Of a stretch of DNA of 32,000 bases, positions 4,471 through 30,986 are shown piece after piece. The stretch covers positions 1,530,001 to 1,562,000 of the forward strand of contig NZ_CP010904.1 in the NCBI RefSeq assembly GCF_001017655.1, written 5' to 3'. Source of the stretch: Kiritimatiella glycovorans (GTDB lineage: Bacteria > Verrucomicrobiota > Kiritimatiellia > Kiritimatiellales > Kiritimatiellaceae). Under the pieces are notes generated by a model. It was not told the DNA's origin. It was given only the letters and a program-made list of their open reading frames with translations, and ran no database searches. The first letter of the stretch is position 1, and each line of letters begins with the position of its first letter. Position numbers and translations under genes: made by a program.

Positions 4471-4518
4471 ATGGCTAAGTTGTTCCGGGGCGGGGGTTTC
4501 CTTATCCGGGCACGATTT

Positions 4519-4677
4519 GAGTGGGAGACCTGAAACTGAATTGAGTGAGAAACCTGAAACCTGAAACCTGAGTAAGACTTCCCACTCCAAACTGAATTGA
4601 GTGAGAAACCTGAAACTGAATTGAGTGAGAAACCTGAAACCTGAAACCTGAGTAAGACTTCCCACTCCCCCTTACTC
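4519..4677. repeat. nested tandem and inverted repeat array (80-bp period, 24-bp and 7-bp sub-units)
   Basis: A perfect 60-bp repeat occurs at 4529..4588 and 4609..4668. The 20-bp spacer (4589..4608) is itself a copy of 4533..4552. The heptamer cctgaaa is iterated. There are inverted matches gagtggga/tcccactc and gagtaag/cttactc. Confidence 0.9.
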
Positions 4678-4729
4678 TAATTCTGGTGTGACTACTCAGG
4701 TACCCCTCTCCCAGAGGACGGTTGACGAT

Positions 4730-4793
4730 AACGGGCGACGAGAGCGGTGGACGATAGAGGCCTTCAACTCGTGAGCCGTTCTCGTCGCCCGTT
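4730..4793. repeat. subterminal hairpin inside the IS (18-bp arms)
   Basis: aacgggcgacgagagcgg (4730..4747) pairs with ccgttctcgtcgcccgtt (4776..4793) at 17 of 18 positions. It lies between the transposase stop and the left IR. It is also present in copy 2, where the stem extends to about 22 bp. Confidence 0.7.
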
Positions 4794-4922
4794 CTCGTTA
4801 GCCGATTCCAGATGGGCTATACGGGATCGAGACGATGGCGGCAAGTCGGGATGGCTCCGCCTGGATTTGCGAGGGGGCGAGTGCGAGTAGGATCGGCGAG
4901 GTCCGTTCATACGCGGCAGGGG

Positions 4923-6407
4923 CTACGAGGTATTGAGCGCCGGAACGAAGGGGTTTCCGCTGAACAGGCGGGTCAGCACATCCATAGCGCCGACGGCATT
5001 CTTGCGGGCGGTTGAGATGTAGCTTCGAATGCGGCAGAAGGCTTGGGCGCCATCCTCGGTTCGGAACATGCCCGAGATTTTCTGCTGCACCTTCATCATG
5101 CGTAGATCGCGCTCAGCCTGATTGTTGTCGAAGGGCACGTTGAAGTCGTACATGAACGCAAGCGCTTCATCGCGGTGCTCGTCGAGCCGTTCGAGCAGGT
5201 TACGGGCTTTGGTCTTCTTGCGGCGGCCCCGTCGTTTCTTCGCGTTGCGCGGCAACGGCGGCAGCGGATTCTGCGCGTAGCCTTCGTCGAGGACTTGCTG
5301 GTAGCGGGCTTCGAAGGTGTGTAGCTGCCGCCGGTCAAGATGATCGGTCGACTGTTTGGCGAGATCGACGGCCTCTTTGATGTCGAGCAGGCAGTCGATC
5401 ATGTGGTCGGCCCAGTCCTGCTGGTGCTGCTCATGCGCAAAGATCAGTTCGCGCAAGTGATGGGCGTTGCAGAGGCCATGGAGGCAGTCGTAGCCGAAGT
5501 ACGGTTTCCAGAAGTCGTGAACGGCGCGTCCGAGGAAGTCGGGCAAGATGCCGATGTCATCGATCGCTTCGCGGCCGCGTTTGCGATGGATGTCATAATA
5601 GGTTGCCTGTGCGGTCGAGGCCGAATGCAGCCACCACAGCTTGCCGTCTACCCGTGAGCCGGTCTCGTCGAAGTGTGCCACGGCGGCCTGCTCGATCAAC
5701 TCCTTGATCTTCTCGACGGGGTCGGCGGCCAACGTGTGGGATTGGGTGATGATATTGCAGAGCGTGCCTTCGCTCATCGGGCAGCCGAAGAAGTCATTCA
5801 GCAGTTCGCAGGTTCGGTCATAGGGCAGGAACTGATAGTTCTTCAGGTACACGGCCGCAGCCTTGATCCCCTCGCCGTATTGCACGGGAGCGTTGACCCC
5901 TTCGGGGAACGCGGCTTTGTTCAGATGGCCGCAAGCGCAGGTTTTGGTTTCAGCCTGGTGCTCGGTGACGATCAGCCGCAGGGGTGGCAGGTCATGGACT
6001 TGACGCTTTTCGATGCCCTCGACGGATTGATCGGCTAGAGAGCGGCCGCAGTGTTCGCATTCCTTCACACGGTGCACTTCGGTGTGCTCGGGCTTGTCGG
6101 CCATCGCGAGCGTATGGCCGGTATGGCCGGGCTGGCCGCCGGACTTGCGCTTGCCCTTCTTGCGCAGGCTTTTGGGCGCAGGTTTCTTGAAGCCGTCGCT
6201 GGAGGGCGGTTTGCTGCTGTTGCGCGAGTTTTTGGCGAGTTGGTTCTCAAGAGACTGAACGCGTTCTTCCAGAGCACGGATGCGCGCATCCATCATCAAC
6301 AGTACCCGCACGACGGTTTCCTTGCCGGCGTCGTAGATCGCTTCGGCCTCTTGGCGTGTCATCACCTGCCCGCCCTCCCTTCGGTTCGGGAGCAGGCGGG
6401 TGCGCAC
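4923..6407 (-). CDS. IS66-family transposase (TnpC-like)
   Basis: Recognisable parts are an N-terminal leucine-zipper-like helix (LEERVQSLENQLAK), a Zn-finger (CEHCG...C.CGH) and IS66 signature motifs CNAHHLRE and FDNNQAERDLR. The more likely start is the internal ATG at 6362 (MTRQEAEA, 479 aa), which overlaps the upstream stop as TGATG. Confidence 0.9.
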   Translation of the reverse strand: MRTRLLPNRREGGQVMTRQEAEAIYDAGKETVVRVLLMMDARIRALEERVQSLENQLAKNSRNSSKPPSSDGFKKPAPKSLRKKGKRKSGGQPGHTGHTLAMADKPEHTEVHRVKECEHCGRSLADQSVEGIEKRQVHDLPPLRLIVTEHQAETKTCACGHLNKAAFPEGVNAPVQYGEGIKAAAVYLKNYQFLPYDRTCELLNDFFGCPMSEGTLCNIITQSHTLAADPVEKIKELIEQAAVAHFDETGSRVDGKLWWLHSASTAQATYYDIHRKRGREAIDDIGILPDFLGRAVHDFWKPYFGYDCLHGLCNAHHLRELIFAHEQHQQDWADHMIDCLLDIKEAVDLAKQSTDHLDRRQLHTFEARYQQVLDEGYAQNPLPPLPRNAKKRRGRRKKTKARNLLERLDEHRDEALAFMYDFNVPFDNNQAERDLRMMKVQQKISGMFRTEDGAQAFCRIRSYISTARKNAVGAMDVLTRLFSGNPFVPALNTS

Positions 6408-7273
6408 AACTCCCGCCGGAACTCCGGGATGAGCGGATACAGATACACGTCCTTGACCGGCGCCTGGATGCGGCGGTCTCGATCGTTGCGGGTCCGCCCC
6501 TGCGTTGCGCCCAGGCGCATCCAGTTCGCGGCCCGGTAGCAGGTGCCTTTGAATCGGGAACGGTCCACGAACGTTTCCAAGGCATGCACGGGATGAGCGT
6601 ACTTGCCCTGCCAGTCATCCCGGATGCGCCGGGCAATGAGGCCGAGGACGTGGCTGGCCAGATGCGGGACTTCGACCCAGGGCAGGATCAGGAAACGCGT
6701 ATTGTTGGTCAATGCCTGGAGATTGCGTTCACGGCAGGCCCGATCCCAGCCGAGGAAACGATCCCGATCCGCGCATTTCCATGCCGCCGAACCGAACAGC
6801 GCACAGGCCACGAGCCGACCGTGCCGGTCGCGGATCAGATAGCGCAGGTTCTCGCCCACCGTGTTGCGATGGCCCAAGTAGTGGTATCGGCCCAGCAGCC
6901 CTTTGAACAACTGCGAGTTATCCGAACGTGGGGCGACAAGGTCTGCCGACAGGGGCCGCAATGCGCTCAGGTCAGAGCGAATCGGTTCGGCGGCAGGTTC
7001 TACGGCAGGCACGCACCGGTTGCGGAAATGATTGGAAGACGGGCGTTGACGCGCCGGCAACTCGATGCATCCGCGTCGCTCCAGCTTCAACAGCAGGGAG
7101 CGCGCCGCCATGTCCTTGATACGGCCCTGCGCGTTGCGCCAGTTCCAGCAGCGGCACAGTTCTTCGCTCAGGCGGGTACGCCCCCAGTCCCGATGCTCTG
7201 CCATCAAATCCCGGATCAAGGCGATCTCGCCGTCCGTGATTCTCCGCCCCTGAATGACCATAGCCTGTGCCAT
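6362..7273 (-). CDS. DUF4338 (DruA-like) domain protein with N-terminal wHTH-like region
   Basis: The stretch YHYLGHRNTVGENLRYLI...ALFGSAAWKCADRDRFLGW...NNTRFLILPWV...ETFVD...GTCYRAANW matches my memory of the conserved DUF4338 core. The N terminus (LIRDLMAEHRDWGRTRLSEELCR) looks like a DNA-binding wHTH. Confidence 0.7.
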   Translation of the reverse strand: MAQAMVIQGRRITDGEIALIRDLMAEHRDWGRTRLSEELCRCWNWRNAQGRIKDMAARSLLLKLERRGCIELPARQRPSSNHFRNRCVPAVEPAAEPIRSDLSALRPLSADLVAPRSDNSQLFKGLLGRYHYLGHRNTVGENLRYLIRDRHGRLVACALFGSAAWKCADRDRFLGWDRACRERNLQALTNNTRFLILPWVEVPHLASHVLGLIARRIRDDWQGKYAHPVHALETFVDRSRFKGTCYRAANWMRLGATQGRTRNDRDRRIQAPVKDVYLYPLIPEFRRELCAPACSRTEGRAGR

Positions 7274-7436
7274 GGTCAGCAGCGTAGAAGACCACGCGAT
7301 CCGAGTCCAGCAGAAACCGCGACTTTTTCCTGTTGCGCTCGGGGGGGGGGGGTAGTCTACGATTGTTCCAGTGGTAGCGCCATGGTGGGGCTACCTGAGT
7401 AGTTACAGTGGGAGATAAAAAATGAAATAATGCAGT

Positions 7437-8126
7437 ATGGTTATAATGATGATGCTATGTGCTTTCGTTTCGAACGCAAATGCGGCGCTGATCTCATGGA
7501 CTGCCGAGGTGTTTAACGCAGCTTCGCAAGTTTCCACAAACGGATCTCTGATTGAAGCGATTAATTTTAACGGAACCAATGCAACCGTGAACACGGTGGC
7601 TTTTATGGCCGATCCGAAGGCCGGGGATGTAACCGGTGCGGACACAGACTACTTGGTTGTGGAACCGTTCAAAGTGATTGGGAGGGGAGCTTATACCGCT
7701 GCAACGGTCTATACCGGCTCGGTGACGGAGATGCAGCCGGTGCTGGACAGCTTTCGTTTTAATACTCGGGCCGATCAGACGGGGTTTCAGTTGACTGGCT
7801 TGACGGTTGGAGAGGAGTATGAGGTACAGATCTGGATAGGTGATGCGCGAACTGCAACCATTCAGGATCGTTATATGACTATCAACGGAACGCGCATTCC
7901 ATTTTCCGGTGCATGGGGCACGTCCATGTATATTGCAACCGGAACATTTACTGCGGATGCAATCACTCAGGATTTGACATTGGCCATGTTTAATAATGCG
8001 AATGATGCAGCATTGGGAACACAATTGCCTGCCTATCAGCTTCGCAGTATTCCTGAGCCTTCCTCACTCTCACTGTGTGTTGTTTTCGCAATTGCTTTAA
8101 TGGGATTGCGTCGATGGAAGATCTAG
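7437..8126 (+). CDS. secreted PEP-CTERM-anchored protein with lectin/CBM-like module
   Basis: It has a short signal peptide (MVIMMMLCAFVSNANA). The C terminus IPEPSSLSLCVVFAIALMGLRRWKI gives a PEP motif, a TM helix and a basic tail. Its central module is duplicated at 8158..8397 plus 9518..9995. Confidence 0.7.
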   Translation: MVIMMMLCAFVSNANAALISWTAEVFNAASQVSTNGSLIEAINFNGTNATVNTVAFMADPKAGDVTGADTDYLVVEPFKVIGRGAYTAATVYTGSVTEMQPVLDSFRFNTRADQTGFQLTGLTVGEEYEVQIWIGDARTATIQDRYMTINGTRIPFSGAWGTSMYIATGTFTADAITQDLTLAMFNNANDAALGTQLPAYQLRSIPEPSSLSLCVVFAIALMGLRRWKI

Positions 8127-8157
8127 CGATAACGTTTTTTTTGAGAGTTCAGATCCA

Positions 8158-8409
8158 GTGGCATCTAGGAAGGAAGTTTTTAAATATATGAGAAATGCTC
8201 GTGGTTTTTTTTGGGCAGGTTTTCTGCTCTTTGGCGCAACAGCTTCGTCAATCGCTTTGACGGTGGCGTTGACTACTGACTCCGCTGCCGACAATATGCC
8301 TGGCTCAATTAAGTGGAATGTTGAAAAATTCATTGCTGCTTCGCAAGTTTCAACAAACGGATCTCTGGTTGAAGCGGTTAATTTCAATGGTTCGACGCTG
8401 AGGAAATGA
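8158..8409 (+). pseudogene. 5' fragment (signal peptide plus N-module) of a paralogue of the 7437..8126 gene
   Basis: AASQVSTNGSLVEAVNFNGS matches AASQVSTNGSLIEAINFNGT of the upstream gene. Homology stops abruptly at about 8397, followed by 4 codons and a TGA. The rest of the module resumes at about 9518. Confidence 0.55.
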
Positions 8410-9413
8410 AGATGCTCACCCCATACCTGAAAGAATCCGCCCTGTGCGCCACCCTTGCGCTGATGCTCATGTCCGAGCGCTTGCTGGCCGAGCAAAAGGG
8501 AATCTACTGGCAGGGCCATGTCGTTGCTGTCACATCCTTCAGCACCGGCTCGGTGCCGGACGATGTTTACGCCGGGGCTGCGATATCGGGCCACCTTGTC
8601 TATGACCCCGCTCATCGGCTGCGTCGCTCCTACATCATGGGGGACTCCTCCGGGTACAAACACACTTTCTCCAACCATTTCGAGCAAACGATCGAGGTCA
8701 GCACGAACGAATGGAAGATAATCGGTGGTTTCATCAGCTTCATATACAACCGCAACATCCCATGGGATGCGGTTGATGTATTCAGCACGCAGGACACCAG
8801 CCATTACCTGTCTTTCCCGAAATACGTTGGTTCTCATGAGGTGGGATTCGCCGTTTTTGACGACGAAACCCCCTATGATCTCTACGAGTCCTCATACGAC
8901 ATCACGAACGCTGCCATCAACTGGCACCAGATCTGTTTTGCCAATGGCTTTCTCACGACCCGGAGATGGGATGAGAATGACGATATTGTTGAGGGGTACT
9001 ACATAGACTTCGATATCGACGTTGTCTTTCCCACACCCATCCCACCCGACGCCGACAACGACCGCCTGCCGGATGCGTGGGAACAAGAGCACTTCGGTGG
9101 CGTCACGAACGCCACCGCAGATGCTCTGTGTTCGAATGGCGTCAACACCACGCGCGAGGCATACATTGCAGGACTCGACCCGAACGACCCCGGCAGCCAT
9201 TTCGCCGTGTTGATGGACACGAACGCTCTTCACTGGACGAGCGTATCCGGGCGTACCTACACGGTCTACCAGACAACGAATCTCATGAACGGCTTCCAGC
9301 CGTTCATGACAGACATTCCGTGGACTCAGGAAACCTATCCACTAACCAATGATCTGCCCACGAGCTTTTACAAGCTCGGTGTGCAGATGGAGGGGGTTTA
9401 CCTTGATCCGTAG
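8406..9413 (+). CDS. secreted hypothetical protein with Asp-rich (thrombospondin-type-3-like) DADNDRLPDAWE motif
   Basis: The N terminus is hydrophobic. A DxDxDxLPDxWE...FG motif is followed by a ...LHWTSVSGRTYTVYQTTNL beta-rich C-terminal domain. Its G+C looks higher than its flanks. The start may be the ATG at 8412, which has better SD spacing. Confidence 0.6.
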   Translation: MKMLTPYLKESALCATLALMLMSERLLAEQKGIYWQGHVVAVTSFSTGSVPDDVYAGAAISGHLVYDPAHRLRRSYIMGDSSGYKHTFSNHFEQTIEVSTNEWKIIGGFISFIYNRNIPWDAVDVFSTQDTSHYLSFPKYVGSHEVGFAVFDDETPYDLYESSYDITNAAINWHQICFANGFLTTRRWDENDDIVEGYYIDFDIDVVFPTPIPPDADNDRLPDAWEQEHFGGVTNATADALCSNGVNTTREAYIAGLDPNDPGSHFAVLMDTNALHWTSVSGRTYTVYQTTNLMNGFQPFMTDIPWTQETYPLTNDLPTSFYKLGVQMEGVYLDP

Positions 9414-9526
9414 TCGATTCACAATGACAAGGAAGGCGTCGAACAAGCCGCCTGCACACGTACCGCTGAAAGCCGCGCGATGCGCGTCTTCCAGCGTCCG
9501 GTGAGGCGCGACGTTCTGCAGAAACC

Positions 9527-12397
9527 GTGAACACGGTGGCTTTTGAGGCCGATCCGAATGCCGGGGACGTAACCGGTTCGGACACAGGCCATCTGATTGC
9601 AGAGCCCTTCAAAGTATATGGGAGAGGCGCTTATGCCGCTGCAACGGTCTATACCGGCTCGGTGACGGAGATGCAACCGGTATTGGATAGCTTTCGTTTT
9701 AATACGCAGCCGGTTCAGGCCGGGTTTCAATTGACTGGTTTGACGGTTGGACAGGAGTATGAGGTACAGATCTGGATAGGTGACGCGCGAACAGCAACCA
9801 TTCAGAACCGTTATGCAACTATCGACAAAACGCGCATTCCATCTTCCGGCGCATGGGGCACGTCCATGTATATTGCAACCGGAACGTTTGTCGCAGATGC
9901 AGCGGCTCAGGATTTGACCGTTTCCATGTGCAATTCTGTTGACAATTCTGCCTTGGGAACTCAGTTGCATGCGTATCAATTGCGTTCGATCAAGACAGCT
10001 TTCGTCATCCCGAAAATTAAAAGTCGGCATGTGGCCGATACGGTTTTGTGGTACAATGAGCCAGCAGATGAATGGGAAAATGCCATGCCCCTCGGGAACG
10101 GTTCGCTGGGGGCAATGGTATACGGTGGAGTCTCGGAAGAGAATATCCAACTCAACAATGATACACTCTGGGCTGGTCGTCCGGTAGATCTTAACCGCAC
10201 CAACGCATTTGAGCATTTAGATGATATCCGAAGCCTGATGTTTGAAGGAAAGTATTCGGATGCACAAAATTTGGTCGAAACCGAGATGCTCACCGACCGT
10301 CCGCGTCCGCGAAGCTATCAGACACTGGGAAACCTGAGACTGAAATTTGATCACGGTGAAATTGTCGAAGATTACTGGAGAGAACTCAATCTGGATACCG
10401 CGATAGCATCGATCAAATATATCCGACATGGTGTGGAATACCGACGTGAGATTTTTATAAGCCCGGTCGATCATGCGTTGATCATGAAGATCAGTGTAAA
10501 TGAGCCCGGGGCTCTTTCTTGTCAGATCTTTTTGGACCGCCCCGACCAGTATGAAACCCGGGCTGAGAGCAGTTCTGCGCTCGTTATGAGCGGAGAGGCG
10601 ATGCATCCCGGGCACAGGATGCCGGATCAGAGGAGCGGAACAAAATATCAGGTTCGTGTTAAAGCGGTACATGAAGGAGGCACATGTTCGGCAACCAACA
10701 ATACACTTATGATCGCGAATGCGGATTCCTTAACATTGTATTTGTCGTCGGCTACGGATTACAACCGGCAAAATCCTGCCGAACCGGCCCCGGACGGCTG
10801 GCGAGATAGAAACCAAGAGGTTCTGCACGACGTCTTGGGTAAATCTTATGATGACCTGCGGGGTGATCATATCGCTGAGCATCAGCGACTTTTCCAACGG
10901 GTTGCACTACAGTTTATAGAAAACGAACAACAGCCCAGCCCGCCAGTCGACGAGAGATTTCGGCTTTACCGGGAGGGTTCTGAGGATCGTGAGCTTGAGG
11001 CTTTACTTTTTCAGTTTGGACGCTACCTGCTGATAAGTTCATCACGACCCGGATCCATGCCAGCCAATCTTCAGTCTATCTGGTGCAAAGAATTAACTGC
11101 ACCATGGAATGCCGACTATCATTTAGATATTAATGTTCAAATGACCTACTGGCCGACGGAAATTTGCAACCTCGCCGAACTGCGTGAGCCATTTATTTAT
11201 ATGTTGAATAGGCTGCGCGATAACGGCGGGAGGACGGCCGGGGAAGTATATGGGTGTCGGGGGTTTGCTACAGCCACGGCTACAGATGGCTGGTGGTACA
11301 CTTATCCTTTCATTCCGGCTAATGTGGGAATGTATCCCACCGGCGGCGCATGGTTGTCTCTGCAACTATGGGATCATTATCTATTCACGGGCGATCGACT
11401 CTATCTCGAACATGATGTCTATCCGATTGTGCGGGATGCCGCTCAATTCTTTGCCGATTATCTCGTGGAGAACCCTCGTACTGGCAAATTTGTTTGCGGT
11501 CCGTCCATTTCCCCAGAGAACTTGTTAATTGGACCTGATGGTAATGTGGCGGCCATTACCTATGCGACCACCCACGACCAGACGATTATCAAACAATTAT
11601 ACTGCGATTATTTGGAAATTGTCGATGTGTTGGGGATTGAGGATAACCTGACCACAGTCGTTTCAGATCAACTGGGGCAACTTCAGGAACCTTTAATCGG
11701 GGAGGATGGGCATCTGAAGGAATACAATAATGAATGCAGTCAATTCTGGCCCGCTCATCGTCATATATCCCATTTGGCCGGACTTTTTTACCCACATAAG
11801 ATGACTTTGTTCGATCAGCCCGAATACGAAGCGGCGGCTTTAAAGGTGCTGAATTCAAAAGAGGAACTGGGAGCTTTTGATGAGCCTGTTGATTGGACCG
11901 TGGCGTGGACGGCATGTATGTATGCAGCTCTAGGCAGGGGAGATGATGCCTATCGCTTTATTAATATGTTTTTAAATCAGAACTGCTATGACTCGATGTT
12001 TGCTATTTGCTCGCCGGAGCAATGGCGGTTGCCTCAGACGGACGGCAATTACGGGATCACGGCAGCGTTTGCGACAATGCTTCTGCAAAGTAATTTCGGT
12101 ACGATTGAAATTCTTCCGGCTGTTCCCTGGAACCACTGGCCGCAGGGGAAGTTTGAGGGACTCTGCGCACGCGGTGGCTTTACAGTGGATGTGCAGTGGG
12201 CAGATCGATTGCTGCAAACCTTGACGATCCATTCGGGTTTAGGCAGCACTTGTCGGCTCAAGCTGGATCATAATTTAACAGAGGGATCCTTTGAGGTGTT
12301 ATGTGAAGGGAAGGCTGTTCCGGTGTCGATTTCGGAAGGGGTTGCTTCTTTTCCTACCCAAAAAGGTCAAACCTATCAGGTCGTTTGTTTGCGTTAA
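9527..12397 (+). CDS. GH95 alpha-L-fucosidase fused to the C-module of the duplicated lectin-like domain; lacks its own signal peptide
   Basis: GH95 hallmarks are LWYNEPADEWENAMPLGNGSLGAMVYGG...IQLNNDTLW and WPAHRHISHLAGLFYP. The first about 160 aa are 85-90 % identical (by eye) at DNA level to 7590..8060. The listed start is a GTG that aligns with an internal Val of the paralogue. The frame is open from 9470. Confidence 0.85.
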   Translation: MNTVAFEADPNAGDVTGSDTGHLIAEPFKVYGRGAYAAATVYTGSVTEMQPVLDSFRFNTQPVQAGFQLTGLTVGQEYEVQIWIGDARTATIQNRYATIDKTRIPSSGAWGTSMYIATGTFVADAAAQDLTVSMCNSVDNSALGTQLHAYQLRSIKTAFVIPKIKSRHVADTVLWYNEPADEWENAMPLGNGSLGAMVYGGVSEENIQLNNDTLWAGRPVDLNRTNAFEHLDDIRSLMFEGKYSDAQNLVETEMLTDRPRPRSYQTLGNLRLKFDHGEIVEDYWRELNLDTAIASIKYIRHGVEYRREIFISPVDHALIMKISVNEPGALSCQIFLDRPDQYETRAESSSALVMSGEAMHPGHRMPDQRSGTKYQVRVKAVHEGGTCSATNNTLMIANADSLTLYLSSATDYNRQNPAEPAPDGWRDRNQEVLHDVLGKSYDDLRGDHIAEHQRLFQRVALQFIENEQQPSPPVDERFRLYREGSEDRELEALLFQFGRYLLISSSRPGSMPANLQSIWCKELTAPWNADYHLDINVQMTYWPTEICNLAELREPFIYMLNRLRDNGGRTAGEVYGCRGFATATATDGWWYTYPFIPANVGMYPTGGAWLSLQLWDHYLFTGDRLYLEHDVYPIVRDAAQFFADYLVENPRTGKFVCGPSISPENLLIGPDGNVAAITYATTHDQTIIKQLYCDYLEIVDVLGIEDNLTTVVSDQLGQLQEPLIGEDGHLKEYNNECSQFWPAHRHISHLAGLFYPHKMTLFDQPEYEAAALKVLNSKEELGAFDEPVDWTVAWTACMYAALGRGDDAYRFINMFLNQNCYDSMFAICSPEQWRLPQTDGNYGITAAFATMLLQSNFGTIEILPAVPWNHWPQGKFEGLCARGGFTVDVQWADRLLQTLTIHSGLGSTCRLKLDHNLTEGSFEVLCEGKAVPVSISEGVASFPTQKGQTYQVVCLR

Positions 12398-12863
12398 AGT
12401 TAGAGGGAGTTGGATATGAACATTCATGATTGTGGTCGGCAGCTTGGTTGCTGTTGTGGTCTTTGGCTGTATTACCGGCTTGCGGAGCCGCAAGGCGACT
12501 CGGCGATCAGTTCGTTGTTAAAGGGCGGACCACGCGACACACTGTTCATTCGGGACGATGAACAGGGCGAGCCATAAGCAGCAATGCTGAAACCCAAATG
12601 ATAGAGAGGCTTGCAATGCTTCATGATCCGTGACTACTCAGGTACCCCTCTCCCAGAGGACGGTTGACGATAACGGGCGACGAGAGCGGTGGACGATAGG
12701 CGCTTCCAACTCGTGAGCCGTTCTCGTCGCCCGTTATCGTTAGCCGATTCCAGATGGCTATACGGGATCGAGACGATGGCGGCAAGTCGGGATGGCTCCG
12801 CCTGGATTTGCGAGGGGGCGAGTGCGAGTAGGATCGGCGAGGTCCGTTCATCCGCGGCAGAGG

Positions 12864-14348
12864 CTACGAGGTATTGAGCGCCGGAACGAAGGGGTTTCCG
12901 CTGAACAGGCAGGTCAGCGCATCCATAGCGCCGACGGCATTCTTGCGGGCGGTTGAGATGTAGCTTCGAATGCGGCAGAAGGCTTGGGCGCCATCCTCGG
13001 TTCGGAACATGCCCGAGATTTTCTGCTGCACCTTCATCATGCGCAGATCGCGCTCAGCCTGATTGTTGTCGAAGGGCACGTTGAAGTCGTACATGAACGC
13101 AAGCGCTTCATCGCGGTGCTCGTCGAGCCGTTCGAGCAGGTTACGGGCTTTGGTCTTCTTGCGGCGGCCCCGTCGTTTCTTCGCGTTGCGCGGCAACGGC
13201 GGCAGCGGATTCTGCGCGTAGCCTTCGTCGAGGACTTGCTGGTAGCGGGCTTCGAAGGTGTGTAGCTGCCGCCGGTCAAGATGATCGGTCGACTGTTTGG
13301 CGAGATCGACGGCCTCTTTGATGTCGAGCAGGCAGTCGATCATGTGGTCGGCCCAGTCCTGCTGGTGCTGCTCATGCGCAAAGATCAGTTCCCGCAGGTG
13401 ATGGGCGTTGCAGAGGCCATGGAGGCAGTCGTAGCCGAAGTACGGTTTCCAGAAGTCGTGAACGGCGCGTCCGAGGAAGTCGGGCAAGATGCCGATGTCA
13501 TCGATCGCTTCGCGGCCGCGTTTGCGATGGATGTCATAATAGGTTGCCTGTGCGGTCGAGGCCGAATGCAGCCACCACAGCTTGCCGTCTACCCGTGAGC
13601 CGGTCTCGTCGAAGTGTGCCACGGCGGCCTGCTCGATCAACTCCTTGATCTTCTCGACGGGGTCGGCGGCCAACGTGTGGGATTGGGTGATGATATTGCA
13701 GAGCGTGCCTTCGCTCATCGGGCAGCCGAAGAAGTCATTCAGCAGTTCGCAGGTTCGGTCATAGGGCAGGAACTGATAGTTCTTCAGGTACACGGCCGCA
13801 GCCTTGATCCCCTCGCCGTATTGCACCGGAGCGTTGACCCCTTCGGGGAACGCGGCTTTGTTCAGATGGCCGCAGGCGCAGGTTTTGGTTTCAGCCTGGT
13901 GCTCGGTGACGATCAGCCGCAGGGGTGGCAGGTCATGGACTTGACGCTTTTCGATGCCCTCGACGGATTGATCGGCTAGAGAGCGGCCGCAGTGTTCGCA
14001 TTCCTTCACACGGTGCACTTCGGTGTGCTCGGGCTTGTCGGCCATCGCGAGCGTATGGCCGGTATGGCCGGGCTGGCCGCCGGACTTGCGCTTGCCCTTC
14101 TTGCGCAGGCTTTTGGGCGCAGGTTTCTTGAAGCCGTCGCTGGAGGGCGGTTTGCTGCTGTTGCGCGAGTTTTTGGCGAGTTGGTTCTCAAGAGACTGAA
14201 CGCGTTCTTCCAGAGCACGGATGCGCGCATCCATCATCAACAGTACCCGCACGACGGTGTCCTTGCCGGCGTCGTAGATCGCTTCGGCCTCTTGGCGTGT
14301 CATCACCTGCCCGCCCTCCCTTCGGTTCGGGAGCAGGCGGGTGCGCAC
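12864..14348 (-). CDS. IS66-family transposase (copy 2)
   Basis: 494-aa ORF differing from copy 1 at a few residues (KETVV to KDTVV, DVLTRLF to DALTCLF). It has the same TGATG coupling, at 14303. Confidence 0.9.
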   Translation of the reverse strand: MRTRLLPNRREGGQVMTRQEAEAIYDAGKDTVVRVLLMMDARIRALEERVQSLENQLAKNSRNSSKPPSSDGFKKPAPKSLRKKGKRKSGGQPGHTGHTLAMADKPEHTEVHRVKECEHCGRSLADQSVEGIEKRQVHDLPPLRLIVTEHQAETKTCACGHLNKAAFPEGVNAPVQYGEGIKAAAVYLKNYQFLPYDRTCELLNDFFGCPMSEGTLCNIITQSHTLAADPVEKIKELIEQAAVAHFDETGSRVDGKLWWLHSASTAQATYYDIHRKRGREAIDDIGILPDFLGRAVHDFWKPYFGYDCLHGLCNAHHLRELIFAHEQHQQDWADHMIDCLLDIKEAVDLAKQSTDHLDRRQLHTFEARYQQVLDEGYAQNPLPPLPRNAKKRRGRRKKTKARNLLERLDEHRDEALAFMYDFNVPFDNNQAERDLRMMKVQQKISGMFRTEDGAQAFCRIRSYISTARKNAVGAMDALTCLFSGNPFVPALNTS

Positions 14349-15214
14349 AACTCCCGCCGGAACTCCGGGATAAGCGGATACAGATACACGTCCTTGACCG
14401 GCGCCTGGATGCGGCGGTCTCGATCGTTGCGGGTCCGCCCCTGCGTTGCGCCCAGGCGCATCCAGTTCGCGGCCCGGTAGCAGGTGCCTTTGAATCGGGA
14501 ACGGTCCACGAACGTTTCCAAGGCATGCACGGGATGAGCGTACTTGCCCTGCCAGTCATCCCGGATGCGCCGGGCAATGAGGCCGAGGACGTGGCTGGCC
14601 AGATGCGGGACTTCGACCCAGGGCAGGATCAGGAAACGCGTATTGTTGGTCAATGCCTGGAGATTGCGTTCACGGCAGGCCCGATCCCAGCCGAGGAAAC
14701 GATCCCGATCCGCGCATTTCCATGCCGCCGAACCGAACAGCGCACAGGCCACGAGCCGACCGTGCCGGTCGCGGATCAGATAGCGCAGGTTCTCGCCCAC
14801 CGTGTTGCGATGGCCCAAGTAGTGGTATCGGCCCAGCAGCCCTTTGAACAACTGCGAGTTATCCGAACGTGGGGCGACAAGGTCTGCCGACAGGGGCCGC
14901 AATGCGCTCAGGTCAGAGCGAATCGGTTCGGCGGCAGGTTCTACGGCAGGCACGCACCGGTTGCGGAAATGATTGGAAGACGGGCGTTGACGCGCCGGCA
15001 ACTCGATGCATCCGCGTCGCTCCAGCTTCAACAGCAGGGAGCGCGCCGCCATGTCCTTGATACGGCCCTGCGCGTTGCGCCAGTTCCAGCAGCGGCACAG
15101 TTCCCCGCTGAGGCGGGTACGCCCCCAGTCCCGATGCTCTGCCATCAAATCCCGGATCAAGGCGATCTCGCCGTCCGTGATCTTCCGCCCCTGAATGACC
15201 ATAGCCTGTGCCAT
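14303..15214 (-). CDS. DUF4338 (DruA-like) domain protein (copy 2)
   Basis: 303 aa, differing from copy 1 at 2 residues seen by eye (R10K, SEELCR to SGELCR). Confidence 0.7.
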   Translation of the reverse strand: MAQAMVIQGRKITDGEIALIRDLMAEHRDWGRTRLSGELCRCWNWRNAQGRIKDMAARSLLLKLERRGCIELPARQRPSSNHFRNRCVPAVEPAAEPIRSDLSALRPLSADLVAPRSDNSQLFKGLLGRYHYLGHRNTVGENLRYLIRDRHGRLVACALFGSAAWKCADRDRFLGWDRACRERNLQALTNNTRFLILPWVEVPHLASHVLGLIARRIRDDWQGKYAHPVHALETFVDRSRFKGTCYRAANWMRLGATQGRTRNDRDRRIQAPVKDVYLYPLIPEFRRELCAPACSRTEGRAGR

Positions 15215-15375
15215 GGTCAGCAGCGTAGAAGACCACGCGATCCGAGTCCAGCAGAAAATCGGGTTTTTTCTGTTGCGCTCGGGGGGGGGGGGTAGACTAC
15301 GATTGTTTCAATGGTAGCGCCATGGTGGGGCTACCTGAGTAGTTACAATCCATACGGCGGGAAGCGACAGGATTT

Positions 15376-23850: not shown

Positions 23851-23884
23851 CCGTATTTTCCGCGCAAAGCGAAGAGAAAAAGAG

Positions 23885-23913
23885 GTTTCGCGCGAAGGCG
23901 CTAAGACGCAAAG
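23885..23913. repeat. left arm of a perfect 29-bp inverted repeat
   Basis: gtttcgcgcgaaggcgctaagacgcaaag is the exact reverse complement of 24579..24607. Confidence 0.95.
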
Positions 23914-23988
23914 AAGGGTCAGGGGCGGACGCAGGAAGCGCCCGCCCTGTAAAATGCGGGGACTATATGGAAGCCCGAGGCCCGCGAT

Positions 23989-24533: not shown

Positions 24534-24572
24534 CCGGAGGGGGCGGGCGCCTCTTGCGCCCGCCCCCTCCGG
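24534..24572 (-). terminator. 17-bp perfect GC-rich hairpin, candidate terminator of the 24613..27093 gene
   Basis: The sequence is ccggagggggcgggcgc ctctt gcgcccgccccctccgg. It lies 41 nt downstream of the stop on the minus strand. The trailing sequence is only weakly U-rich (CCUGUAGCUUUAUACC). Confidence 0.4.
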
Positions 24573-24578
24573 CTCCTG

Positions 24579-24607
24579 CTTTGCGTCTTAGCGCCTTCGC
24601 GCGAAAC
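24579..24607. repeat. right arm of a perfect 29-bp inverted repeat
   Basis: ctttgcgtcttagcgccttcgcgcgaaac. A 13-nt piece of it (gcgccttcgcgcg) recurs at 24624..24636 inside the 3' end of the neighbouring gene. Confidence 0.95.
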
Positions 24608-24612
24608 GTCTC

Positions 24613-27093
24613 TTATAGTCCCCGCGCCTTCGCGCGCCACGCCCCGGCGGGCATGGCGCGTTCGAGGAAAAACGCGTCTTCGGGCGGGATACGCAGCGTG
24701 CCGCGTACCGGCTCGCCGCTGTTGTGCGCCGGATCCTGCATTCCGTCGAGACGACGCAGCTTCAGTCCCGGCAGTACGGAGGCGAGATCGACCTCCACCG
24801 CCTCTTCGCGCGAGCCGTTAAGCACGACCACGCCGTTTTCGAATACGCGGTAGAGCACATCCGCGCAGCCCTTCCGCAACTCGATCCCCGCAAGTTCCAC
24901 CGTGCCGGGCGACTCCGAGAGATCGATCTGCAGCTCGCCCGCACCCGCAGCGGGGGCCTGCAGCGTGACGTCGACCCGGCGCTCCTCAGGAAACGCAAGG
25001 ATCTCCTGGCCGAATCCCGTTTTATGGTACCCATCCGGTTTGATTGAAGTTGGCGCGAGCATCCCGCCGGACTTCAGCCGCAGGATTACCGCGCGGGGGA
25101 TCGGACGGTACCGATCCGCGATCGCTCCATACGGACTCGATCCGCGCAGCCTGAACCGCAGCGCGTACTCGGCCATCGGCTCGAACCGCACGTTATCGAT
25201 CGGCAGCCGCGCAAAGAGGTGAAAGCGCTCCTCGTCTCCGGTAAACGGGCCCGTTTGCTCGACTTCGAAGCGCAGGGTACGCATCCCGGACCGCTCGGGC
25301 TCGCGCGCCGCCCAGCGCCTGTCCTCCGCCTCAATGCGCGGAAACGCGCTTTCGGCGTCGAATGCGTAGAGCACCGGACCGAGATGTCCGCGGTACCGCC
25401 GGGGCGGGGTCAGCGGCGCACCCAGCCAGCGGCGCACGTCCTCCACGCCCCGGTGAAACTCGTCGTAGTCCAGGGCCAGGTTCGCGCCGTAACGATCCTC
25501 TTCCGCCGCACGTCCGGGATAATCCAGCAGCTCCGCCGCGGAAGGAGCGCGGATGGCGTCCTTGTGCGCGAGGCCGGTCACCATACATGCGGAGGCCAGA
25601 TCCAGCCGCCAGTACGACAGCGCGTAGCTCGGCCGCCGCCGCTGCTCCTCTTCGAGCCGCTGGTCACCGCCCCCGTGCCACGCGTCGTCGGGATGCTTAT
25701 TGCTCACGAAGGTGATATTCGGTTTCTGCGCGAGCCGTCCCCACAGCAGCAGGCGGTCGAGATTCGAGCTGTAGCGGTGCTGCCCAATGCTCCAGCCCAT
25801 GCCGTGGATCATGGTGTGTTCGAACTCCCCGCCGTTGAGCAGATGGAAGAAGCGCTGGTCGTCGGTGTCCGTGGAGTCCCAGGTCAATTCCAGCGCATCG
25901 CCCATCCCGGCATAAACCCCGGGCACGCCCTCGCGCAGGTAATAAACGAAGTCATGCATACCCAGTCCCCACCAGCTCGCGCCGTCCAGGTACCCGCGAT
26001 CGACGCGACCGTCGTTATTGAAGTCCGCGCGCTCGATAATCTTCGGCGTAGAGAAGAACGTACTGCTGCAGACGTCCAGCGCATAGCCGTCACTGTGCGG
26101 AAAATACTTCGCCTTGCGTTCGATGAAATGGCACGCGAACCACTGGGCCGCGTTGAGTCCCGTATCGGGATCGACCGGAGCATAGGGCGAAAAATTGGGC
26201 TGCATGAAGGGGATCACAGGGTAGTGTAAGGGGTGATCCTCCGGGAGGTTTCTGCGCCCCCACGTGTCGATCCGGTCCCAGATACCCACGGCCGCCGCCA
26301 CGTAGGTCCCCGCATCCATGGGGGGGAAGGCGGCCTTTTCCGCGCGGTAGCGCCGCACCGCAATCGTGCCCGCCGCCGCATCGGTCGCGGTCACCTCGCC
26401 CAGCTCCGCGCGGCTCCAGTCCAGTTCGCCCGAATGATCGCGCGGGCACAGCACCACCGTGCGCGGAACATTTGGCGACCCGGTCAGCCGCTCGAGCGAC
26501 GCCGCCATGAAGTTCGGGGTGGCGCGGCGCGGTCGGAAGCGTTCCGTGTCGGGCACGGAGAGGGTCACGCGCGGACCGGGCGGCACGGGTTTTGTGGTGT
26601 CGATACCCGCCTCGTAGAGCCAGAAGCCGGGGAAGTCCGGCATCGGCACGAAATCCTCGCGCAGCACCTCCCCGTACCCGGCGCGCCGTTCGATCCACTT
26701 CCGCCGGACCGTCCCCCGCATCAGGCCGCGATCCGACATCCACTGCCGCGGGAGGTAGGCGTTGGCGCTGATGAAATCGCCGCCGACATGGATGAGGACG
26801 GGTTTGTCCGGGTAGCGCTGCGCGAACGACTCGACCGCGTACTCGCGCATCCAGACGTGGTGATCCGAGACAACCATATCGATCCGCTCCTCACAGGCCT
26901 CCAGCATCGCGGGAGTCTCCTGCCGGAACAGAACCTGGTGCGGATATCCGCTGCGGAGCTCGCCGTCGTCCGGAACGTCCTGCGCACATCCGGCGATCAA
27001 CAACCATGCGCCGGCACCGGCGAGCACACGCCATCCGGAAGGCCGAAGCCCGCGAAAACTGCGGGGCCACGTCCCGCTGCATATCGTATTCAT
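24613..27093 (-). CDS. large lipoprotein of unknown function (possibly glycoside-hydrolase-like)
   Basis: The start is chosen at MNTICSG... because it gives a lipobox signal (AWLLIAGC). The 100 codons further upstream in the 928-aa ORF lie in AT-rich promoter-like DNA. No catalytic family could be recognised by eye. Confidence 0.6.
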   Translation of the reverse strand: MNTICSGTWPRSFRGLRPSGWRVLAGAGAWLLIAGCAQDVPDDGELRSGYPHQVLFRQETPAMLEACEERIDMVVSDHHVWMREYAVESFAQRYPDKPVLIHVGGDFISANAYLPRQWMSDRGLMRGTVRRKWIERRAGYGEVLREDFVPMPDFPGFWLYEAGIDTTKPVPPGPRVTLSVPDTERFRPRRATPNFMAASLERLTGSPNVPRTVVLCPRDHSGELDWSRAELGEVTATDAAAGTIAVRRYRAEKAAFPPMDAGTYVAAAVGIWDRIDTWGRRNLPEDHPLHYPVIPFMQPNFSPYAPVDPDTGLNAAQWFACHFIERKAKYFPHSDGYALDVCSSTFFSTPKIIERADFNNDGRVDRGYLDGASWWGLGMHDFVYYLREGVPGVYAGMGDALELTWDSTDTDDQRFFHLLNGGEFEHTMIHGMGWSIGQHRYSSNLDRLLLWGRLAQKPNITFVSNKHPDDAWHGGGDQRLEEEQRRRPSYALSYWRLDLASACMVTGLAHKDAIRAPSAAELLDYPGRAAEEDRYGANLALDYDEFHRGVEDVRRWLGAPLTPPRRYRGHLGPVLYAFDAESAFPRIEAEDRRWAAREPERSGMRTLRFEVEQTGPFTGDEERFHLFARLPIDNVRFEPMAEYALRFRLRGSSPYGAIADRYRPIPRAVILRLKSGGMLAPTSIKPDGYHKTGFGQEILAFPEERRVDVTLQAPAAGAGELQIDLSESPGTVELAGIELRKGCADVLYRVFENGVVVLNGSREEAVEVDLASVLPGLKLRRLDGMQDPAHNSGEPVRGTLRIPPEDAFFLERAMPAGAWRAKARGL

Positions 27094-30817: not shown

Positions 30818-30820
30818 TTA

Positions 30821-30986
30821 ATGCCGAGCTGGAGCTCGGCGTTCCCAGGAGAGAAAAATGCCGAGCTGGAGCTCGGCGTTCCCAGGAGAGAAAAATGCCG
30901 AGCTGGAGCTCGGCGTTCCCAGGGGGAGAAATGCCGAGCTGGAGCTCGGCGTTCCCAGGAGAGAAAAATGCCGAGCTGGAGCTCGG
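30821..30986. repeat. 4.5 tandem copies of a 36-37-bp hairpin unit (stacked intrinsic-terminator-like elements)
   Basis: The unit is atgccgagctggagctcggcgttcccaggagagaaaa, starting at 30821, 30858, 30895, 30931 and 30968 (the last partial). On the minus strand each unit reads as hairpin GCCGAGC-UCCA-GCUCGGC followed by AUUUUUCUCUCC. Confidence 0.9.

Follow-up and report, generated by a model that had tools for sequence, protein, structure and literature searches.

The two-gene mobile element described here is best explained, and we hold this with moderate confidence, as an IS66-family insertion sequence (IS) whose transposase is coupled to a Mom-like acyltransferase that would act on nucleic acid. 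The window that was analysed, a stretch of 32,000 nucleotides from Kiritimatiella glycovorans, contains two copies of this 2.72-kb element that are 98.9% identical as judged by BLAST, and the genome holds at least about nine copies (about nine accessory loci are annotated). A search of a literature library revealed no publication joining DUF4338 or DruA with IS66, transposases or Mom, and the repeated recruitment of the accessory module by transposase families appears to be undescribed.

Anatomy of the element

Copy 1 occupies positions 4688–7407 on the minus strand (2720 bp), its bounds being given by the region common with copy 2 in BLAST and by the terminal inverted repeats. Copy 2 lies at 12630–15347, also on the minus strand (2718 bp), with its accessory gene at 14303–15214 and its transposase gene at 12864–14303. 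Both copies have terminal inverted repeats of the GTAAC/GTGAC type. In copy 1 the left repeat (7387–7407, minus strand) reads TGTAACTACTCAGGTAGCCCC in gene orientation, and the right repeat (4688–4706, minus strand) reads GTGACTACTCAGGTACCCC on the plus strand; the element ends read (T)GTAACTACTCAGGTAGCCCC and GTGACTACTCAGGTACCCC. In many related loci, too, the terminus GTAACTAC precedes the accessory gene by about 130 nt. From the left repeat, a 5' leader (7274–7386, minus strand), which contains a C12 tract (7341–7352) of the same length in both copies, leads to the accessory gene (6362–7273, minus strand). This gene encodes 303 aa comprising an N-terminal three-helix domain (approximately residues 1–75) and a Mom-like GNAT domain (approximately residues 100–290), and it is followed by the transposase gene (4923–6362, minus strand; 479 aa from an ATG, 494 aa from a GTG at 6407). 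After the transposase stop and before the right end comes a long imperfect hairpin (4719–4804, minus strand) with 36-nt arms and a 14-nt loop; a long imperfect hairpin is present in copy 2 as well. A scan of the element for sigma-70 promoters and terminators gave results at chance level. An ORF of 348 aa on the plus strand (6356–7402) was rejected as a GC-rich shadow of the accessory gene.

The transposase ORF (4923–6407, minus strand) matched PF03050 (E 3e-49), DUF6444 and zf-IS66 (Pfam accessions PF03050, PF20042 and PF13005), and it matched NF033517 at E 5e-97 (score 325 bits; cut-off 180). NCBI annotates the protein as WP_074041551.1, 'IS66 family transposase', with a length of 479 aa. Only two genes lie between the repeats; neither tnpA nor tnpB was found in the element, and the upstream protein gave no match to the models of TnpA or TnpB. 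Together with the domain matches, this confirms the initial annotation of an IS66-type element whose sole partner gene encodes a coupled PF14236 protein.

With regard to known IS, the element resembles canonical IS66 (tnpA-tnpB-tnpC) in its PF03050/NF033517 DDE transposase with zf-IS66, in its multicopy nature and in its length of 2.6–2.7 kb. IS66 termini start with 5'-GTAA, and those of the K. glycovorans element start with GTAA(C); target duplications of 8 bp are seen in relatives (see below). In contrast to canonical IS66, the element lacks both tnpA and tnpB and carries a coupled gene for a 303-aa Mom-like GNAT protein upstream, and its transposase has a DUF6444 N terminus where canonical IS66 has the LZ_Tnp_IS66 leucine zipper. 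Within the IS66 family, elements of the ISBst12 group are described as possessing a single ORF, for a TnpC-related transposase, and neither tnpA nor tnpB. Compared by this description, the present element agrees with the group in its TnpC-related transposase and in the lack of tnpA and tnpB but differs from it by the second conserved gene of 303 aa.

No target duplications were found at either window copy, cross-matches and a composite-transposon arrangement included. A related element of 2,596 bp from an Opitutales genome, with GTAAC at both ends, has six copies flanked by perfect 8-bp target duplications and two further copies with swapped duplication halves. By analogy with this relative, the K. 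glycovorans element may also generate target duplications of 8 bp.

The minus strand at the gene junction of copy 1 reads GGTGATGAC, in which the TGA stop of the accessory gene (6364–6362) and the ATG of the transposase gene (6362–6360) overlap as TGATG (6360–6364, minus strand). This overlap, which had been proposed earlier, was read from the sequence and is real, with a 479-aa transposase starting from that ATG. The GTG at 6407 was disfavoured as the transposase start since the conserved stop/start overlap and the 479-aa NCBI model both point to the ATG at 6362. The two genes are predicted to be translationally coupled through the TGATG overlap. As the accessory stop overlaps the transposase start, ribosomes making the transposase would just have made the accessory enzyme, in the same place and at the same time.

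Both ORFs are intact in each of the two copies. The accessory proteins differ by 2 aa (R11K, E37G) and the transposases by 3 aa (E15D, V462A, R465C), precisely the numbers that the initial annotation had given as approximate. At the nucleotide level the genes have diverged by about 0.6% (6/912 nt in the accessory gene and 8/1440 nt in the transposase gene). The 5' non-coding end is the most divergent part of the element, at 6.7% (9/134 nt), and the 3' non-coding end has diverged by 3.4% (8/235 nt), so that the ends of the two window copies differ 5 to 10 times as much as their coding regions. Furthermore, of 57 distinct related loci from many phyla, 56 have retained a start that overlaps or abuts the stop. 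As judged by these two patterns, the accessory gene and the transposase behave as a unit under selection, which agrees with the functional unit previously suggested for the pair.

Fold and relatives of the accessory protein

A search with the 303-aa protein (ORF 6362–7273, minus strand) gave the expected match to PF14236 (DUF4338), with an E-value of 9.3e-38 and 130 bits (cut-off 27) over residues 66–264. Its AF2 model had a pLDDT of 83, and a Foldseek comparison of this model with the PDB produced 61 matches at E ≤ 1e-3, in which SpeG and other GNATs appeared at E 3e-5; target-normalised TM-scores reached 0.67 for SpeG, GCN5, NAT10 and AHL synthases. The model thus indicates that the C-terminal domain has a GNAT fold, in agreement with PMC10853773. 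A sequence search of solved structures with the accessory protein gave nothing relevant. When the N-terminal domain was modelled alone (pLDDT 84), winged-helix domains of the Lrp/AsnC/DeoR type ranked first at non-significant values (E > 1). The winged helix-turn-helix suggested for the N terminus in the initial annotation therefore leads the ranking in a good model and is statistically unconfirmed, and the modelled helical domain is probably DNA-binding.

Of the known families, the nearest to the accessory domain is that of phage Mu Mom (PF25680). This GNAT moves glycine from Gly-tRNA(Gly) to the N6 of adenine in dsDNA (PMC13219725). The comparison by hhalign of a diverse accessory alignment (A1) with a Mom alignment (A5) gave 97.4%, with an E-value of 1.2e-11 over 164 columns. 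Apart from PF14236, Mom was also the only Pfam family that was matched, by 12 of 36 diverse members with a best E-value of 1.7e-6; the best members scored 25–26.3 bits, which is under the gathering score of 27.1, and the accessory protein of the window gave no match to Pfam Mom at E ≤ 0.1. Among the top 50 matches listed from a viral fold library there was no named Mom; these were generic GNATs, some of them fused to endonuclease-like domains.

The motifs paired in the Mom comparison were HY(S/L), ELNR with NNxRF, (N)SES with (N)LAS, SFAD with ETFVD and G-IYQAsNF with GTCYRAANW. In Mom, R111 and S124 are essential, and H58, Y59 and Y159 are important (Silva et al. 2026, PMC13219725). The former two align with R193 and S207 of the accessory protein and the latter three with H131, Y132 and Y246. 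R193, S207, H131 and Y246 are identical in 22 of 22 aligned members, transposase fusions included, while Y132 is replaced by P in 4 of the 22. The initial annotation had given the function of DUF4338 as unknown; the domain has the fold of a GNAT, comes closest to Mom and has the catalytic residues conserved.

The accessory protein also differs from Mom in several respects. It is found on insertion sequences and not on phages, and, beyond what Mom has, it carries a helical domain at the N terminus and an 'RDxxIGW' insert specific to its family. The HTH-like insertion of Mom (approximately residues 175–209), which is required for Mom activity, lies opposite a gap in the hhalign alignment; nothing in the accessory protein corresponds to it there, so that DNA recognition by the accessory protein, if any, must work differently. 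Moreover, x-L-A-S takes the place of the GNAT pyrophosphate-binding motif in its canonical form (Q/R-x-x-G-x-G/A), and the acyl donor can therefore not be inferred.

The lack of a recognisable GNAT CoA-binding motif of the canonical kind would suit a protein that aids or regulates transposition by DNA or protein binding alone, its GNAT-like domain serving as a scaffold for dimerisation or ligand sensing. The weak likeness of the N-terminal helical domain to Lrp/AsnC/DeoR DNA-binding domains would fit such a role, as would the tight coupling to, and fusion with, transposases. However, the Mom-type catalytic residues are invariant or nearly so in members that are only 35–50% identical and in all fusion contexts, and a mere scaffold would hardly account for such conservation. 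A regulator that binds specifically to DNA or to the transposase should also co-evolve with its IS, yet the phylogeny of the accessory protein does not agree with that of the transposase. We consider binding alone to be a rather improbable function.

The GNAT fold likewise raises the possibility of a TacT/AtaT-type toxin that acetylates charged tRNA, which would make the IS an addiction or growth-control module. Mom itself uses charged tRNA, its structure superposes with those of TacT and FemX (PMC13219725), and its untimely expression is reported to be toxic (PMC3378877). Nevertheless, the 2.7-kb element has no antitoxin gene, and roughly 9 to 14 or more intact copies are tolerated per genome in the genomes examined. 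At roughly double the length of such toxins, the protein carries an extra N-terminal domain, and it gave no match to the acetyltransferase families that hold them, Mom being the only related Pfam family. We regard a toxin as very improbable.

NCBI names the accessory protein 'Druantia anti-phage system protein DruA', and this name and the PF14236 match (E 9e-38) would be expected if the gene were a true druA, that is, a part or remnant of an anti-phage system beside an IS. The two proteins do share homology in the first half of the GNAT domain, the 'RDxFIGWD' insert being part of it (hhalign 96%, E 2e-9); this comparison was made with the type I DruA proteins of R. solanacearum and P. putida and is confident over some 120 columns only. 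Real DruA, however, has about 410 aa and is encoded within a druABCDE operon, whereas the accessory protein has 303 aa and is encoded within an IS. At the aligned positions the DruA proteins from the two complete type I operons lack the Mom-type catalytic residues (the HY, R and S positions) and the C-terminal ETFVD/YRAANW motifs, and DruA showed no detectable similarity to Mom. The DruA model of PADLOC matched the accessory protein at E 1e-4 over 54 aa. In addition, druB-E genes are absent from the window and from the related loci with a readable downstream gene, which is a transposase gene there, and the accessory gene is enclosed by the inverted repeats of an element that exists in several copies. 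This genomic context refutes the literal reading of the name, to which we attach hardly any credence. The accessory protein is instead only a distant relative of genuine Druantia DruA and is not a Druantia component. The initial annotation had hoped for light on the function of DruA; a shared family and the first half of the domain remain of this, with the distance and the missing catalytic motifs of DruA limiting what can be learned.

Distribution and portability of the module

A genome survey with an alignment of close members (A3) yielded 234 relatives, the best 80 of which were kept as loci; since A3 was used and not the diverse alignment A1, these numbers are biased to IS66-linked members that are 55–88% identical. 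The surveyed loci come from PVC bacteria, Acidobacteriota, Chloroflexota, Proteobacteria, Spirochaetia and others. Among the best 80 of 234, an IS66-type transposase gene lies directly downstream in nearly every locus with enough DNA, and the pairing of DUF4338 with a downstream IS66-family transposase, for which such a survey had been suggested, thus recurs across many phyla. The accessory protein has more than 8000 close homologues and falls into 9007 clusters at 50% identity, the latter count covering the whole accessory family with or without an adjoining transposase. With numbers of this size, the gene pair is not a matter of chance. In a sample of nine more distant accessory members, the transposase was absent beside two.

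It is also evident that the module is not confined to one kind of transposase. Locus pairs were found in which the accessory proteins are 84% identical and the transposases 25% identical, and by such comparisons the module recombines between deeply diverged IS66 lineages. It is fused to transposases of the IS4/Tn5, IS630, IS701 and IS66 types, and an ISAs1 fusion is present on a finished Thiodictyon plasmid; in the IS4, IS630, IS701 and ISAs1 fusions the module is always N-terminal. As a separate gene it adjoins IS701-like, ISLre2 (UPF0236) and IS66 transposases. One locus (L086) contains a canonical IS66 in which the accessory gene (X) is inserted precisely at the junction of tnpB and tnpC, all four genes being present in the order tnpA-tnpB-X-tnpC. 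The module has been recruited repeatedly, with at least six mutually unrelated families of DDE transposases involved, which indicates a general function that is independent of the transposase family. The IS66 subgroup contemplated in the initial annotation is too narrow, as the module also occurs with IS4/Tn5, ISAs1, IS630, IS701 and ISLre2 transposases and together with tnpA and tnpB.

Such mobility would also be expected of a passenger gene that benefits the host or vector and has no role in transposition, for example an orphan DNA-modification enzyme directed against restriction or other defence. The accessory gene passes from one IS lineage to another without following the transposase, and some members stand alone without any transposase. 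Its homologue Mom protects phage DNA from restriction (PMC13219725, PMC7261163), and its distant relative DruA is part of a defence system. Cargo genes, however, are not usually located upstream of the transposase gene, overlapping it and translationally coupled to it, nor are they usually fused in frame to transposases as in the N-terminal fusions found here. The precise insertion between tnpB and tnpC in L086 and the retention of an ordinary IS size (2.6–2.7 kb) also argue against cargo. Overall we judge a passenger role to be unlikely, although it is the alternative that we take most seriously.

Proposed activity and significance

According to the reading that we prefer, an IS with a coupled Mom-like acyltransferase, the IS66-type DDE transposase would move the element between its GTAAC-type inverted repeats and make 8-bp target duplications. 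The accessory protein, in which a helical and probably DNA-binding N-terminal domain is fused to a Mom-homologous GNAT domain, would be an active acyl- or aminoacyl-transferase on nucleic acid, an activity that we infer from the homology and the conserved residues. Its most likely act would be to add a group to a DNA base, comparable to the transfer of glycine to the N6 of adenine by Mom. Such a modification might mark or shield the DNA of the element or of the host, or it might gate transposition epigenetically, and the protein would not act through specific contact with one particular transposase.

Dam methylation controls the ends of IS10 and IS50, the methylase being that of the host. This is a conceptual analogue, as a base modification could similarly gate transposase expression or end activity; here, by contrast, the IS would encode its own enzyme, which would be Mom-like and not a methylase. 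More tentatively, the elements may constitute a large class of IS across phyla (IS66, IS4/Tn5, ISAs1, IS630, IS701 and ISLre2) that encode their own Mom-like DNA-hypermodifying enzyme. Made in cis with the transposase, this enzyme would attach an acyl or aminoacyl group to a DNA base, possibly via a charged tRNA. The resulting private epigenetic mark would gate transposition, or it would keep host nucleases away from the element or its intermediates. We put this wider proposal forward as a possibility that is clearly less probable than the explanation on which it builds.

The accessory genes of IS are few and poorly understood, and the present data point to one conserved enzyme module that has been recruited again and again, always at the N terminus of the transposase or directly upstream of it. 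Thousands of proteins that bear the name 'Druantia anti-phage system protein DruA' are encoded by transposon genes, and counts of defence systems are inflated by them. For DruA itself the module offers a cautious handle, as DruA shares the first half of the domain without the catalytic residues. The chemistry of Mom was solved in 2026, and the link to Mom turns an 'unknown domain' into a concrete hypothesis that can be tested cheaply. If a class of IS with Mom-like enzymes does exist, many uncultured bacteria would harbour undiscovered DNA modifications.

Organisation of the element and its surroundings

The accessory gene (6362-7273, minus strand) encodes 303 aa and matched the Pfam profile PF14236 (DruA/DUF4338) with an E-value of 9.3e-38; its product is 100% identical to WP_201774599.1 from Kiritimatiella glycovorans. 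The neighbouring transposase ORF (4923-6407, minus strand) matched DDE_Tnp_IS66, DUF6444, zf-IS66 and NCBIfam transpos_IS66 (325 bits, cut-off 180), so the initial annotation of a DUF4338 protein partnered by an IS66-type transposase holds. The minus strand reads GGTGATGAC, showing that the accessory TGA (6364-6362) and an in-frame transposase ATG (6362-6360) have one A in common, exactly as had been claimed, and this ATG is also the transposase start in the 479-aa NCBI model.

The pair is enclosed in a 2,720-bp unit (IS copy 1, 4688-7407) bounded by the imperfect inverted repeats (T)GTAACTACTCAGGTAGCCCC and GTGACTACTCAGGTACCCC. The unit contains neither tnpA nor tnpB. A second copy (12630-15347) is 98.9% identical, and neither window copy is flanked by target duplications. 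The earlier estimate of about two and about three amino-acid differences between the copies proved to be exactly two for the accessory protein (R11K, E37G) and three for the transposase (E15D, V462A, R465C), the genes differing by ~0.6% at the nucleotide level, the 5' non-coding end by 6.7% and the 3' non-coding end by 3.4%. The K. glycovorans genome encodes about nine accessory proteins of this kind.

Both copies carry, on the coding strand of the leader, a C tract of the same length, 12 nt (7341-7352 and 15281-15292), ~70 nt upstream of the accessory gene start, which could be a slippage-prone expression switch. In both, the stretch from the transposase stop to the right inverted repeat also contains an imperfect hairpin whose arms are 36 nt long (4719-4804 and 12661-12746), which might act as a terminator, bind the transposase or form an end-protecting structure. 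A 348-aa ORF antisense to the accessory gene (6356-7402, plus strand) was judged to be a GC-rich shadow ORF and not a gene.

The 5.2 kb between the two direct IS copies (7408-12629) have 47-55% GC vs ~64% outside and encode two PEP-CTERM-like ORFs with internal repeats D2 and D7 (7437-8126 and 8406-9413) and a GH95 glycosidase (9527-12397). This segment resembles cargo gained by horizontal transfer within a composite-transposon-like arrangement, around which no flanking target duplications were found. With regard to repeats, a GAAACCTGAAAC-rich tandem repeat with 24-nt and 80-nt periods (4517-4668) stops 20 bp short of IS copy 1, and a 37-nt unit with the palindromic core GCCGAGCTGGAGCTCGGC, present in 4.5 tandem copies (30820-30986), looks REP-like or terminator-like. 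Two 54-nt inverted repeats with 83% complementarity (23878-23931 and 24561-24614) surround 629 nt and may together form a small non-autonomous element.

Distribution and exchange among transposases

Close homologues of the accessory protein number more than 8000, the majority on 1-4 kb contigs, the signature of repeats breaking assemblies. Relatives numbered 9007 among 50%-identity cluster representatives and 234 in a scan of one genome per species, the best 80 of these 234, kept as loci, coming from PVC bacteria, Acidobacteriota, Chloroflexota, Proteobacteria, Spirochaetia and others. An IS66-type transposase lay directly 3' of the accessory gene in nearly all loci with enough downstream DNA, in a survey whose seeding with close relatives over-represents IS66 partners. 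The transposase start overlapped or abutted the accessory stop in 56 of 57 distinct loci, in forms including ATGA, TGATG and GTGCTGA. One such transposase clade (Pfam DUF6444 and DDE_Tnp_IS66) is only 22-25% identical to the window transposase.

In a long-read Opitutales genome, a 2,596-bp relative with termini GTAAC...GTTAC is present at least 14 times, six of the copies having perfect 8-bp duplications. In two further copies (L035 and L041, MAG CAXXNP010000002) the duplication halves (gagaggac, tgtttctt) are exchanged, indicating a chromosomal inversion by recombination between these two IS copies. The element is thus a real, active and widespread insertion sequence.

Moreover, accessory and transposase identities are discordant among IS66-linked loci. 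Two loci (L026 and L056) share 84% identity in the accessory protein and only 25% in the transposase, and 20% of the pairs in the 80-90% accessory-identity bin have transposases less than 35% identical. In an acidobacteriotal locus (L086) the gene separates tnpB from a canonical LZ/zf/DDE/C TnpC, so that the order is tnpA-tnpB-X-tnpC. Thirteen of the 150 best cluster representatives exceed 550 aa; nine of the ten scanned are transposase fusions, with the module N-terminal in IS4/Tn5-like (three NCBIfam subtypes), IS630 and IS701 fusions and C-terminal in the single IS66 fusion. The tenth (P0200) joins the module to an adenylate/guanylate cyclase catalytic domain and contains no transposase. 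A finished Thiodictyon plasmid carries the module fused to an ISAs1 transposase and, in addition, a stand-alone copy that an inserted IS91 separates from a Tn5-like transposase. Among nine more distant stand-alone members sampled (P0453 from called genes only), the downstream neighbour was an IS701-like DDE_5 transposase for two members, an ISLre2 (UPF0236) transposase for one, an IS66 transposase for one, and for one protein, in three places, a 210-aa unknown ORF with an IS21 element just past it; two had no transposase there.

Separately, locus L093 (1810-3563) contains a small DUF6788 ORF overlapping the beginning of a DUF772-type transposase, and two homologues (P0218, P0239) are modules fused to DUF6788. 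This suggests that DUF6788 is a further transposase-associated accessory domain, and that there may be one more IS family partner.

IS66 itself is an established family, in which relatives with a single transposase have been described. The searchable literature shows no trace of the two-gene organisation, of how abundant it is and how it spread to other IS families, or of the Mom homology described below; a named ISfinder or TnCentral entry may list such an element with an 'unknown ORF'.

Relationship to Mom and to DruA

The AlphaFold2 model (pLDDT 83) comprises an N-terminal β-β-α-α-hairpin-α domain (residues 1-66), a linker and an α/β domain. Foldseek against the PDB returned only GNAT acyltransferases (SpeG, GCN5, NAT10, AHL synthases and FeeM), with E-values to 3e-5 and target-normalised TM-scores up to 0.67, in agreement with a remark that DUF4338 is a GNAT (PMC10853773). 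A rival reading of this fold is that the protein is a GNAT toxin. For the N-terminal domain modelled alone (pLDDT 84), winged-helix domains of Lrp/AsnC, DeoR and PerR ranked first, all at a non-significant E > 1, so the wHTH of the initial annotation stays a suggestion.

The only other Pfam family matched was Mom (PF25680), in 12 of 36 diverse members, the best at E 1.7e-6 and slightly below the gathering score. Profile-profile comparison with an alignment of phage Mu Mom and ten phage homologues gave 97.4% probability and E 1.2e-11 over 164 columns. Mom moves glycine from Gly-tRNA(Gly) to adenine N6 of double-stranded DNA; R111 and S124 are essential, and H58, Y59 and Y159 important (Silva et al., Nat Commun 2026, PMC13219725). 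With a verified +10 numbering offset, these residues correspond to R193, S207, H131, Y132 and Y246. All but Y132 are invariant or nearly so among members 35-50% identical, and identical in all fusion and adjacency contexts examined; Y132 is kept in most members and is P in four aligned ones. It is against this conservation that the rival of a non-catalytic regulator is to be weighed. At the aligned position the accessory family lacks any equivalent of the HTH-like insertion that is essential in Mom, and has instead its own N-terminal helical domain and a separate insert. The Mom link is the informative result on the nature of the protein.

A further rival, that the protein is a true DruA, was assessed against two genuine Druantia type I operons (R. 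solanacearum pUW163a and P. putida pKF715A), each with druA, three ORFs and a helicase (1,850 aa, DEAD/DEAH). Their DruAs (409-413 aa) share homology with the IS-borne family (96% probability, E 2e-9), but only ~120 columns align confidently. These comprise the first GNAT strands and a family-specific 'RDxFIGWD' insert, and DruA does not conserve the HY motif, R193, S207 or the C-terminal ETFVD/GTCYRAANW motifs. The PADLOC DruA model covered only 54 residues (E 1e-4). The rest of the window encodes no DruB-E; its products are an NrdD-like reductase, the GH95 glycosidase, a transglutaminase-domain protein and other unrelated proteins. Since DruB-E are missing, the match is partial and the motifs are not kept, the NCBI name 'Druantia anti-phage system protein DruA', carried by this protein and many relatives, is a domain-level over-annotation. 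The sole place where a real DruA and IS66 were found together was the P. putida plasmid, where a canonical tnpA-tnpB-tnpC element lies ~440 bp upstream of druA (L111, 8973-12873), probably by coincidence.

Proposed role in transposition

These data show a DDE transposase operon whose transposase start codon overlaps the stop codon of an upstream ORF, and this ORF encodes a Mom-like GNAT in which the catalytic constellation is intact. They also show that the layout is conserved and that recombination exchanges the module between IS lineages and families. The accessory protein would be an active acyl- or aminoacyl-transferase that modifies nucleic acid (most probably DNA), and would be made stoichiometrically and in cis with the transposase. 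A rival explanation holds that the gene is a passenger anti-restriction gene. Because the module works with sequence-unrelated transposases and different terminal repeats, its target is probably generic (DNA, tRNA or a common host factor) and not one transposase or end sequence. Dam gates transposition of IS10 and IS50 and offers an analogue. In the reading we favour, DNA-base modification by the accessory protein would likewise gate transposition, or would protect element DNA or transposition intermediates.
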